Position numbers and translations under genes: made by a program. From a virus (Duplodnaviria; Heunggongvirae; Uroviricota; Caudoviricetes), in the IMG/VR virus record IMGVR_UViG_2537562091_000001: a stretch of DNA of 9,517 bases; one strand, given 5' to 3'. The notes beneath the pieces are model-generated. The model made no database searches. It saw only the letters and a list, made by a program, of their open reading frames with translations, and was not told the DNA's origin. Shown piece after piece: positions 6,322 through 9,517 of the stretch (position 1 is its first letter; each line of letters begins with the position of its first letter).

Positions 6322-6818
6322 TGCCTCCATCATTACGAAAAGCCGTTGCTGCTGCTATTGGTGGCGGAGCAATTGCTATAGCATCAGTGTTAATCACTGG
6401 CCCAAGTGGTAACGATGGTCTGGAAGGTGTCAGCTACATACCATACAAAGATATTGTTGGTGTATGGACTGTATGTCACGGGCATACAGGAAAAGACATC
6501 ATGCTCGGTAAAACGTATACCAAAGCAGAATGCAAAGCCCTCCTGAATAAAGACCTTGCCACGGTCGCCAGACAAATTAACCCGTACATAAAAGTTGATA
6601 TACCGGAAACAACGCGCGGCGCTCTTTACTCGTTCGTTTACAACGTGGGCGCTGGCAATTTCAGAACATCGACGCTTCTTCGCAAAATAAACCAGGGCGA
6701 TATCAAAGGCGCATGTGATCAGCTACGTCGCTGGACATATGCTGGCGGTAAGCAATGGAAAGGTCTCATGACTCGTCGTGAGATTGAGCGTGAAATCTGT
6801 TTGTGGGGTCAGCAATGA
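6321..6818 (+). CDS. rrrD: SAR endolysin (T4-lysozyme-type muramidase with N-terminal signal-anchor-release domain), 165 aa
   Basis: Start overlaps the essD stop (TAATG); Gly/Ala-rich weakly hydrophobic N-terminus [20 protein letters not shown] typical of SAR domains; E35 and D44 catalytic residues present; matches R21/RrrD as recalled. Confidence 0.9.
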
Positions 6819-7276
6819 ACAGAGTAACCGCGATTATCTCCGCTCTGGTTATCTGCATCATCGTCTGCCTGTCATGGGCTGTTAATCATTACCGTGATAA
6901 CGCCATTACCTACAAAGCCCAGCGCGACAAAAATGCCAGAGAACTGAAGCTGGCGAACGCGGCAATTACTGACATGCAGATGCGCCAGCGTGATGTTGCT
7001 GCACTGGATGAAAAATACACGAAGGAGTTAGCTAATGCGAAAGCTGAAAATGATGCTCTGCGTGATGATGTTGCCGCTGGTCGTCGTCGGTTGCACATCA
7101 AAGCAGTCTGTCAGTCAGTGCGTGAAGCCACCACCGCCTCCGGCGTGGATAATGCAGCCTCCCCCCGACTGGCAGACACCGCTGAACGGGATTATTTCAC
7201 CCTCAGAGAGAGGCTGATCACTATGCAAAAACAACTGGAAGGAACCCAGAAGTATATTAATGAGCAGTGCAGATAG
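6815..7276 (+). CDS. rzpD: Spanin inner-membrane subunit Rz (i-spanin), 153 aa
   Basis: ATG at 6815 overlaps the rrrD stop (ATGA); N-terminal transmembrane helix [18 protein letters not shown] followed by a coiled-coil-like region; nearly identical to lambda Rz as recalled. Confidence 0.9.
7035..7217 (+). CDS. rzoD: Spanin outer-membrane lipoprotein subunit Rz1 (o-spanin), embedded in the +1 frame of Rz, 60 aa
   Basis: ATG at 7035 preceded by aaggag at 7022-7027; lipobox VVGC followed by a Pro-rich mature region ([16 protein letters not shown]); lies entirely within rzpD, as Rz1 does within Rz in lambda. Confidence 0.88.
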
Positions 7277-7280
7277 AGCT

Positions 7281-7296
7281 GCCCATATCGATGGGC
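7281..7296. terminator. Short GC-rich hairpin (gcccat-atcg-atgggc) between the convergent rzpD and borD genes; possible weak bidirectional terminator
   Basis: 6-bp stem seen between the two stop codons at 7276 and 7308; no clear U-tract on either strand. Confidence 0.25.
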
Positions 7297-7307
7297 AACT
7301 CATGCAA

Positions 7308-7601
7308 TTATTGTGAGCAATACACACGCGCTTCCAGCGGAGTATAAATGCCTAAAGTAATAAAACCGAGCAATCCATTTACGAATGTTTGCTGGGTTTC
7401 TGTTTTAACAACATTTTCTGCGCCGCCACAAATTTTGGCTGCATCAACAGTTTTCTCCTGTCCAATTCCCGAAACGAAGAAGTGATGGGTGATGGTTTCC
7501 TTTGGTGTTACTGCTGTCGGTTTGTTTCCAACAGTAAACGTCTGTTGAGCACATCCTGTAATAAGCATTGCCAGAGCGGCAGAAAACAACATTTTTTTCA
7601 T
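7308..7601 (-). CDS. borD: Bor-family outer-membrane lipoprotein (serum-resistance protein homologue), 97 aa
   Basis: Start at the ATG giving MKKMLFSAALAMLITGCAQQ... (lipobox ITGC); near-identical to lambda Bor as recalled; the track ORF from 7649 is an N-terminal extension. Confidence 0.88.
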   Translation of the reverse strand: MKKMLFSAALAMLITGCAQQTFTVGNKPTAVTPKETITHHFFVSGIGQEKTVDAAKICGGAENVVKTETQQTFVNGLLGFITLGIYTPLEARVYCSQ

Positions 7602-7960
7602 CTTATTATCCTGCATTGTTAAAAACGGCAGAATCCTATGTGACAACAATTAAACGATAGTTAAATGGATTGATGAAAATTAAAACTATATAGGTGGATG
7701 CTCAGCCTATTGGAGGAGGGGGGCACTCAGAATCCTGTGGAATGAAATAAACCGCTCTTTCTGTCCATTACCCTTTTAGCTGCGCTGTATCGTCGCCGTA
7801 TTCCCGCATTAACCATGACCGTAGCCCGACGGGGAATTCCTTCTGCGTGAGTGTGCGGGAATAATCAAAAACGATGCACACCGGGTTTTACTGTGCTGAC
7901 AGACGCAGGGTTACCCTCATAGTCGCTTTTCCGGTGCGATGGTGGAAGAAACCGGGATGT

Positions 7961-8155
7961 TTATTCATCATCACTCTGGATTGATGTATATGCTCTCTTT
8001 TCTGACGTTAGTCTCCGACGGCAGGCTTCAATGACCCAGGCTGAGAAATTCCCAGACCCTTTTTGCTCAAGAGCGATGTTAATTTGTTCAATCATTTGGT
8101 TAGGAAAGCGGATGTTGCGGGTTGTTGTTCTGCGGGTTCTGTTCTTAGTTGACAT
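7961..8155 (-). CDS. ylcI: Small 64-aa protein with a predicted ribbon-helix-helix-like DNA-binding pattern; by position the ylcI (DUF3950) equivalent
   Basis: ORF MSTKNRTRRTTTRNIRFPNQMIEQINIALEQKGSGNFSAWVIEACRRRL...; a basic N-terminus, then a beta-strand-like RNIRFP followed by two helices, resembles Arc/CopG-type folds (inference). It sits between bor and cos, as ylcI does in DLP12. Confidence 0.55.
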   Translation of the reverse strand: MSTKNRTRRTTTRNIRFPNQMIEQINIALEQKGSGNFSAWVIEACRRRLTSEKRAYTSIQSDDE

Positions 8156-8319
8156 GAGGTTGCCCCGTATTCAGTGTCGCTGATTTGTATTGTCTGAAGT
8201 TGTTTTTACGTTAAGTTGATGCAGATCAATTAATACGATACCTGCGTCATAATTGATTATTTGACGTGGTTTGATGGCGTAGATGCACGTTGTGACATGT
8301 AGATGATAATTATTATCAT

Positions 8320-8543
8320 TTTGCGGGTCCTTTCCGGCGATCCGACAGGTTACGGGGCGGCGACCTCGCGGGTTTTCGCTATTTATGAAAATTTTCCGGT
8401 TTAAGGCATTTCCGTTCTTCTTCGTCGTAACTTAATGTTTTTATTTAAAATACCCCCTGAAAAGAAAGGAAACGACAGGTGCTGAAAACGAGCTTTTGGG
8501 CCTCTGTCGTTTCCTTTCTCTGTTTTTGGCCGTGGAATGAACA
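8320..8543. other. Lambda-type cos site: cosQ/nick region, cosN 12-nt cohesive-end sequence gggcggcgacct at 8355-8366, and cosB (terminase/IHF binding region) extending to the nohD start
   Basis: Sequence around 8321-8540 matches the joined right and left ends of lambda as recalled (tccgacaggttacg | gggcggcgacct | cgcgggttttcgctatttatgaaaattttccgg...), with a few substitutions; the Nu1-like ORF starts about 190 bp downstream, as in lambda. Confidence 0.85.
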
Positions 8544-9095
8544 ATGGAAGTCAACAAAAAGCAGCTGGCTGACATTTTCGGTGCGAGTATCCGTACCATT
8601 CAGAACTGGCAGGAACAGGGAATGCCCGTTCTGCGAGGCGGTGGCAAGGGTAATGAGGTGCTTTATGACTCTGCCGCCGTTATAAGATGGTATGCCGAAA
8701 GGGATGCTGAAATTGAGAACGAAAAGCTGCGCCGGGAAGTTGAAGAACTGCGGCAGGCCAGCGAGACAGATCTCCAGCCAGGGACTATTGAGTACGAACG
8801 CCATCGACTTACGCGTGCGCAGGCCGACGCACAGGAGCTGAAAAATGCCAGAGACTCCGCTGAAGTGGTGGAAACCGCATTCTGTACTTTCGTGCTGTCG
8901 CGGATCGCAGGTGAAATTGCCAGTATTCTCGACGGGATCCCCCTGTCGGTGCAGCGGCGTTTTCCGGAACTGGAAAACCGACATGTTGATTTCCTGAAAC
9001 GGGATATCATCAAAGCCATGAACAAAGCAGCCGCGCTGGATGAACTGATACCGGGGTTATGGGCGTTGGCCTCAACACGATTTTACGTCACTTAA
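8544..9095 (+). CDS. nohD: Terminase small subunit Nu1 homologue, C-terminally truncated: Nu1-like residues 1 to about 171, then 11 codons and a stop read from IS1 DNA (fusion ORF of 183 aa)
   Basis: Translation [46 protein letters not shown]... follows lambda Nu1 (winged-helix N-terminus) up to ...[10 protein letters not shown], then diverges into [11 protein letters not shown] encoded by IS1 sequence; no terminase large-subunit gene follows. Confidence 0.85.
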
Positions 9096-9517
9096 AAAAC
9101 TCAGGCCGCAGTCGGTAACCTCGCGCATACAGCCGGGCAGTGACGTCATCGTCTGCGCGGAAATGGACGAACAGTGGGGCTATGTCGGGGCTAAATCGCG
9201 CCAGCGCTGGCTGTTTTACGCGTATGACAGGCTACGGAAGACGGTTGTTGCGCACGTATTCGGTGAACGCACGATGGCGACGCTGGGGCGTCTTATGAGC
9301 CTGCTGTCACCCTTTGACGTGGTGATATGGATGACGGATGGCTGGCCGCTGTATGAATCCCGCCTGAAGGGAAAGCTGCACGTAATCAGCAAGCGATATA
9401 CGCAGCGAATTGAGCGGCAGTAACCTGAATCTGAGGCAGCACCTGGCACGGCTGGGACGGAAGTCGCTGTCGTTCTCAAAATCGGTGGAGCTGCATGACA
9501 AAGTCATCGGGCATTAT
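9059..9517 (+). mobile_element. IS1 fragment lacking its left end (IS1 coordinates about 283 to 743), joined directly to nohD; runs to the window end
   Basis: From 9059 the sequence matches internal IS1 (atgggcgttggcctcaacacgattttacgtcacttaaaaaactcaggccgc...), with no terminal inverted repeat at the junction; positions 9059 to about 9243 are the reverse complement of positions about 186 to 1. Confidence 0.9.
9061..9423 (+). pseudogene. insB: IS1 insB remnant: lacks the insA-insB 5' region and carries an apparent +1 frameshift near 9420 relative to canonical InsB
   Basis: InsB frame reads [17 protein letters not shown]...[10 protein letters not shown] then stops at 9421-9423, while the canonical InsB C-terminus [31 protein letters not shown] continues in the next frame (ggcagtaacc here versus ggcataacc as recalled). 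Confidence 0.6.

Follow-up and report, generated by a model that had tools for sequence, protein, structure and literature searches.

The window analysed here, the whole stretch of 9,517 nucleotides, corresponds to one contig of the E. coli draft assembly GCA_000191015.1 (scaffold GL872249.1, where it is identical to positions 1458-10974 of the extracted locus), and on both sides it is flanked by runs of N that lie inside IS1 copies. Read from 455 down to 1, the left end of the window represents positions 1-455 of IS1, whose left inverted repeat borders on position 456. This copy is in the orientation opposite to that of the IS1 sequence at the right end. In the right-hand sequence, the extra G at 9420 shifts the reading frame of insB. 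As the window ends coincide with the gaps in the scaffold, the terminal IS1 copies are contig ends within a repeat.

The window shows 99.7% identity to the DLP12-type prophage of E. coli B/BL21 and 100% to that of strain TUM17668, and its gene order, ybcL, ybcM, ybcN, ninE, ybcO, rusA, ylcG, quuD, nmpC, essD, rrrD, rzpD, bor/iss, ylcI, cos and nohD, is that of DLP12 in strain K-12 (Table 1). This DLP12 (qsr') arrangement is found near cus: to the right of the window the source scaffold runs through IS1 and an rhs/PAAR/vgrG cluster to cusS-cusR-cusC, argU itself lying outside the scaffold sequence examined. The cos-nohD region of K-12 DLP12 thus belongs to the same prophage family, insertion neighbourhood and gene order as the window, but its cos allele differs at 9 positions (K-12 has T53 and G54), its nohD is full-length where that of the window is fused to IS1, and it retains ybcV and ybcW, both of which are missing from the window. 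Note that the open reading frame for the nmpC-type porin is whole here, while the K-12 copy is broken by IS5 and the BL21 copy by IS1.

To the left of the window on the scaffold, the source prophage is missing about 5 kb that TUM17668 has, comprising the repressor/cro (immunity) region, an O-like gene and most of P, and emrE-ylcJ-ybcK is replaced by an IS1. None of the hallmark genes of phage-inducible chromosomal islands (PICIs), alpA, pri-rep and rpp, was found among those genes of the locus that carry an annotation or a Pfam label, and a scan of 7900-9100 for promoters and terminators gave no signal above shuffled expectation.

Table 1. Features of the window, with the corresponding positions in phage lambda where applicable.
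Feature	Window position	Strand	Remarks
nmpC-type porin gene, 360 aa	4435-5517	minus	intact; 2.8-3.9 kb left of cosN, on the cosQ side
Homologue of lambda right-end non-coding DNA upstream of cosQ (lambda 48092-48472)	7944-8324	+	95.6% identity
ylcI	7961-8155	minus	annotation carried over from identical TUM17668 sequence
cosQ, GGGTCCT (lambda 48473-48479)	8325-8331	+	identical to lambda; 23 bp from top-strand nick, as in lambda
cosN core, symmetric	8353-8368	none	identical to lambda; cosN as defined in PMC9026076
12-nt cohesive end, GGGCGGCGACCT (lambda 1-12)	8355-8366		identical to lambda
I2 bent spacer (lambda 18-50)	8372-8404	+	sequence and length of lambda, no indel
R3, small-subunit binding site, AGGCATTTCCGTTCTT (lambda 50-65)	8404-8419	+	one change, G54A
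I1 region between R3 and R2, predicted IHF site (lambda 66-108)	8420-8462	none	73 A>G, 102 T>C
IHF-consensus-like core inside I1	8433-8445	minus	core unchanged relative to lambda
R2, inverted copy of CTGTCGTTTCCTTTCT (lambda 109-124)	8463-8478	minus	identical to lambda
R1, CTGTCGTTTCCTTTCT (lambda 151-166)	8504-8519	+	identical to lambda
nohD', homologue of Nu1 (terminase small subunit)	8544-9095	+	residues 1-172 lambda-like (K48R, A75T, L132I)
Internal IS1 fragment (IS1 positions 270-729)	9057-9517	+	joined to nohD at lambda 705; extra G at 9420

The cos site and natural variation in R3

Lambda positions refer to NC_001416, with subsites as defined in papers from the Feiss laboratory (including PMC4669245, PMC4856287 and PMC9026076); window coordinates equal 8354 plus the lambda left-end position up to lambda 137, and 8353 plus the position beyond. 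In local alignments, window 7944-8354 matched lambda 48092-48502 with 95.6% identity over 411 bp and window 8355-9058 matched lambda 1-705 with 97.9% identity over 705 bp. Both had E = 0, so that a chance match is excluded, and the entire stretch 7944-9058 is colinear with the annealed lambda ends and free of rearrangement. A preliminary description had placed a lambda-type cos site at 8160-8543, with only a few substitutions in the cohesive end and the adjacent terminase-binding region. This span, which differs from NC_001416 by 15 substitutions and one 1-bp deletion, does contain the feature, although its start at 8160 is generous and cos proper begins at 8325. The changes in the functional cos (8325-8519) are indeed few, amounting to five substitutions (48486 T>C, 54 G>A, 73 A>G, 102 T>C and 134 G>A), with 145 T>G and the loss of G138 in addition.

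The order, orientation and spacing of all subsites are those of lambda cos and Nu1, and cosQ, cosN, I2, R2 and R1 are identical in sequence. From lambda 48487 through 53 there is no difference at all between window and phage, and hence the nick region and the distances from cosQ to cosN and from cosN to R3 are all those of lambda. Nicks are expected at 8354/8355 in the top strand and at 8366/8367 in the bottom strand. Outside the conserved elements, 48486 T>C sits between cosQ and cosN, 134 G>A and 145 T>G fall into the spacer between R2 and R1, and 73 A>G and 102 T>C, both also present in PhiR42_1, PhiR34_1 and 2H10, flank the IHF-like core of a predicted IHF site that is identical to lambda from 74 to 101. 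The conserved elements include cosQ, which is needed to terminate packaging (PMC4669245), and I2, which is essential for an early packaging step (PMC4856287). Judged by its sequence, the site is therefore a structurally complete cos (cosQ, cosN, I2, R3, I1, R2 and R1) of lambda packaging specificity.

Between 8491 and 8492 the window lacks lambda G138, a base present in NC_001416, which shortens the R2-R1 spacer by 1 bp. This base is also missing from DE3, a lambda derivative, from four other phages and from all DLP12 copies compared, making NC_001416 the odd one out; its presence there stems either from variation between strains or from a mistake made when the reference was sequenced long ago.

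The alignment to lambda cos, with R1-R3 and the IHF site scored, had been proposed as a check, and substitutions known to abolish terminase binding or cutting as the result that would speak against a usable site. None was found at such positions: R1, R2 and the IHF-like core are unchanged, and the sole change within any R site, G54A, lies outside positions 55-63. The contacts seen by NMR in R3 fall at 55-63, and mutations that affect packaging are located at 56, 58 and 59 (Feiss laboratory papers, including PMC9026076). Position 54 is the G of the CGTTTCC core that is common to all three lambda R sites, and its replacement could weaken R3 or make packaging dependent on IHF.

Natural variation nevertheless argues for tolerance of G54A. 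Over 8301-8546 (246 bp), A54 included, the window does not differ from phage PhiR42_1, in whose Nu1 residues 1-47 are those of lambda. This phage was deposited as a complete genome of 48.7 kb with Nu1, A, W, B and a named propagation host, its viability resting on the database record. A54 was found in 76 IMG/VR contigs. Of the 75 with enough flanking sequence, 42 agree with the window at every base from cosQ to the ATG of Nu1; in 14 of these 42, a full-length lambda-type TerL follows cos. A full-length TerL downstream is rarer after A54 (18 of 33 contigs) than after G54 (24 of 28), a difference that is probably due to the defective DLP12 lineage having been sampled repeatedly. Among the lambda-type R3 haplotypes in IMG/VR, recurrent natural variants are confined to positions 53 and 54, giving CGTTTCC, CATTTCC and TGTTTCC, the last being the R3 allele of K-12 DLP12. 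BL21, TUM17668 and the window are identical across cos.

In five IMG/VR contigs, a cos with A54 is followed by an open reading frame of 64 amino acids with a Nu1-like start (MEVNK) and a wholly divergent remainder; here the small terminase gene has been truncated or replaced in another way, downstream of a cos that is intact.

Loss of the cognate terminase

Of the 181 residues of lambda Nu1, the first 172 are represented in nohD' with 169 matches and three conservative changes, and residues 1-47, which form the helix-turn-helix and wing, are identical, in agreement with the earlier statement that the DNA-binding N-terminus is intact. The last 9 residues are swapped for 11 residues read from IS1. 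Binding of TerL resides at the extreme C-terminus of the small subunit (PMC4669245). Homology to lambda ends at lambda 705, 6 bp short of the start codon of gene A, where the sequence passes into IS1 at position 270. Gene A, encoding the terminase large subunit, is wholly absent. The preliminary description of a packaging-deficient prophage, in which a lambda-type cos is followed by no large subunit, therefore holds: the specificity site is complete and gene A is gone.

Relative to TUM17668, the junction between nohD and IS1 (9056-9060, with 2 bp of microhomology) represents a deletion of 1151 bp that comprises the 3' end of nohD, an 876-bp remnant of gene A and the first 269 bp of IS1. As it is internal to IS1, the junction is not a transposition end. 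From this comparison, the cognate terminase appears to have been destroyed by an IS1-associated deletion that removed the last 9 codons of Nu1 together with all of gene A. The exact Nu1-IS1 chimera and its junction are present in five independent assemblies, draft or metagenome (GCA_000191015.1 and four others), and an assembly artefact as the origin of the fusion is ruled out by this recurrence of the exact chimeric protein. Neither of the two IS1 junctions of the window was found in 5,426 complete E. coli genomes, and the right, nohD-IS1, junction was not found in GTDB representatives.

Helper packaging and recombination

Terminase binds cosB, nicks cosN, stays on the cosB end as Complex I and translocates DNA from there (PMC4669245, PMC4856287). 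The end on the cosQ side is unprotected and left to nucleases (PMC4856287), and it is the recombinogenic side (PMC3945230). Terminases of the cos type need a second cos for the terminal cut, 38-51 kb away and in the same orientation, and DNA that protrudes from the head blocks the joining of tails (PMC6687093). Lateral transduction is not carried out by cos phages (PMC12829572).

Against this background, the proposal that the element could be cut and packaged in trans by a superinfecting lambda-like phage, as happens with cosmids, stands in its first part only. No substitution falls where a change is known to prevent binding or nicking by terminase, so that a terminase of lambda specificity, provided in trans, could plausibly cut the site. 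Cosmid-like packaging is opposed by the polarity of the process, by the single cos and by the loss of O and most of P. No second cos is present within -9.8/+10.7 kb, the 20.5 kb of source scaffold, and in K-12 the DLP12 cos has none within 60 kb upstream, a region of housekeeping genes. The suggested route for mobilising nmpC in particular is not borne out, since packaging would run away from the cosQ side, where nmpC is located together with the lysis genes and bor.

Cosmids and cos-type PICIs such as EcCICFT073 likewise carry a non-phage cos that a helper terminase could recognise in trans. Cosmids, however, are packaged because they replicate and multimerise, and PICIs replicate and excise, so that two cos sites come to flank a packageable length; PICIs also encode int, alpA, pri-rep, Rpp and a cosB of their own. 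The window element has no replication genes and none of these PICI functions. With the repressor region, O and most of P lost, the source element cannot form concatemers. It was found to have neither replication and excision of its own nor two cos sites 38-51 kb apart, and its cargo lies neither downstream of cosB nor between two cos sites. The cos of lambda itself acts within a replicating concatemer, whereas that of the window is chromosomal and single-copy, with gene A absent and the C-terminus of Nu1 replaced.

A further likeness is offered by the 'doc' particles of lambda, reportedly described by Little and Gottesman in 1971 and by Sternberg and Weisberg in 1975 as products of in situ packaging from an unexcised prophage. 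In that case a chromosomal cos is said to be cut and host DNA to be packaged one way from the Nu1 side, the heads being left unfinished when there is no second cos. The terminase for doc particles is said to come from the same prophage, whereas the window cos would need that of another phage, and the process is predicted here from sequence.

Hybrid qsr'/p4 phages carrying nmpC were described in the 1970s-80s, and so was a lambda cos deletion that reverted through recombination with a cryptic prophage. The term 'DLP12 cos junction' was used by Poteete's group in 2004 (PMC545071). According to De Paepe et al. 2014, 3,353 bp are common to lambda and K-12 DLP12, extending over the lysis genes, cos and the terminase genes; recombinants between the two are frequent, half of their junctions adjoin cos, and those with the DLP12 nu1 are viable. 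The authors put the hotspot down to cleavage of cos in lambda and perhaps also in DLP12 (PMC3945230). This K-12 work used the DLP12 cos allele that differs from that of the window at 9 positions.

In the window, homology to lambda is confined to three blocks, 6815-7655 (Rz-bor, 94%), 7778-7888 (82%) and 7944-9058 (cos-Nu1, 96-98%). Left of 6815 there was no match to lambda 38000-48502, and to the left of nmpC no homology to lambda 38000-44499 was found. Lambda could swap the cos/Nu1/Rz/bor block here, but as homology is missing to the left of nmpC, lambda itself has no left-hand crossover site inside the window. Pickup of nmpC could occur only via a left crossover outside the window, or via phages that share the nin/Q region.

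A cos of this kind is common: with a 226-bp query and a match over at least 80% of its length, it was detected in 3,982 of 5,426 complete E. coli genomes (73%), at a median of two places per genome and at up to eight. Both the cos of DLP12 and its recombination with lambda have been described before, and the feature as such is ordinary.

Plasmid matches were inspected for a natural cosmid, and the candidates NZ_CP148748.1 and NZ_CP069918.1 (14-16 kb, with nohD) were rejected as fragments of intact lambdoid head/tail modules. Three further PLSDB records, NZ_CP068597.1, NZ_CP104294.1 and NZ_CP082339.1, are 'plasmids' of 48,499-48,502 bp from Paenibacillus, Stenotrophomonas and Salmonella with 97% identity to the region. 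As this identity is lambda's own to the window and the length is that of lambda, the records most likely represent control DNA of lambda that was submitted as plasmid sequence.

Possible fates of the relic cos

We consider it well supported, with a probability of roughly 0.8, that the feature is a relic cos of a DLP12-type (qsr') prophage at argU beside cus, complete and of lambda specificity, that a helper could cleave, from which packaging to the right would be abortive, and which would serve as a patch for recombination. When a phage of lambda specificity grows in the cell, its small subunit would bind R3 and R2, spanning the IHF bend, and the large subunit of this helper would then nick at 8354/8355 and 8366/8367. 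The enzyme would remain on the nohD side and package to the right, through IS1 and rhs/vgrG towards cus, and with no second cos downstream packaging would never be completed into an infectious particle. The outcome would be a double-strand break next to a patch of high homology, and we infer that in the source strain the site may in this way stimulate recombination, as a hotspot and a donor for incoming lambdoid phages, in the way demonstrated for DLP12 of K-12. It is via such recombination, and not via packaging of the island, that DLP12 genes reach phage genomes.

The same intact cos of lambda specificity could be taken to indicate a cosmid or cos-type island, cut and packaged by a superinfecting lambda-like phage that would carry nmpC and the other cargo to new hosts, and helper-dependent packaging is real for cosmids and for PICIs of Gram-negative bacteria (PMC9026076; see also PMC6092414). 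We regard this as very improbable here, as nmpC on the cosQ side would not be translocated from the window cos and would be exposed to nucleases, the required same-orientation second cos (PMC6687093) is found neither on the source scaffold nor in the K-12 interval searched, cos phages do not perform lateral transduction (PMC12829572), concatemers cannot form after the loss of the repressor region, O and most of P, and alpA, pri-rep and rpp are not among the called genes. In addition, sequencing of lambda-induced K-12 particles returned host reads almost only from beside the lambda attachment site (PMC7667829); that strain carries a DLP12 cos, but as DLP12 was not singled out in the study, this is weak negative evidence. 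A further possibility, that a helper terminase packages the interval between an upstream lambda-type cos in the same orientation (38-51 kb away) and the window cos, is given hardly any weight. If true, it would amount to cos-to-cos chromosomal transduction in which relic cos sites act as terminators, with nmpC and the lysis-bor cassette forming the last few kilobases of DNA in the particle.

Reports on the particle DNA bear also on the opposite idea of an inert relic, the debris of recent decay on which no terminase acts, owing to G54A or to the chromosomal context, and whose homology would be its sole consequence. No DLP12 signal was reported in that study (PMC7667829), the cognate terminase is gone, G54A falls into the conserved CGTTTCC core, and the DLP12 copies, with BL21, TUM17668 and the window identical, are too little diverged to reveal selection on cos. 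Such inertness is nevertheless unlikely in view of the complete phage that combines an identical cos with an identical TerS DNA-binding domain, of the 14 contigs in which the same cos precedes an intact TerL, and of the K-12 lambda/DLP12 junctions that cluster at cos, a pattern that the authors put down to cos cutting (PMC3945230). Finally, cos and the altered Nu1, which keeps the regions for DNA binding and oligomerisation, might form an interference device against lambda-type phages, by titration of terminase, by occupancy of cosB or by cleavage of the chromosome. In Nu1 the DNA-binding domain has been left whole and replacement is limited to the extreme C-terminus, the part that binds TerL, the gene lies downstream of the Q-dependent late operon, and the same fusion recurs in five assemblies. 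Its expression and phenotype are conjectural, however, the fusion resembles an accidental IS1-associated deletion, related strains retain a full nohD, and lambda grows and recombines freely on K-12 that carries DLP12 (PMC3945230), such that we hold a role of this type to be highly doubtful.

The relic cos of the DLP12-type prophage is a worked example: the survival of an intact packaging site in a dead prophage is not enough to move adjacent genes, as packaging from cos runs in one direction and requires two sites. Its realistic consequence is a different one: recombination with incoming lambdoid phages can move late-region genes of DLP12 into viable phage genomes.
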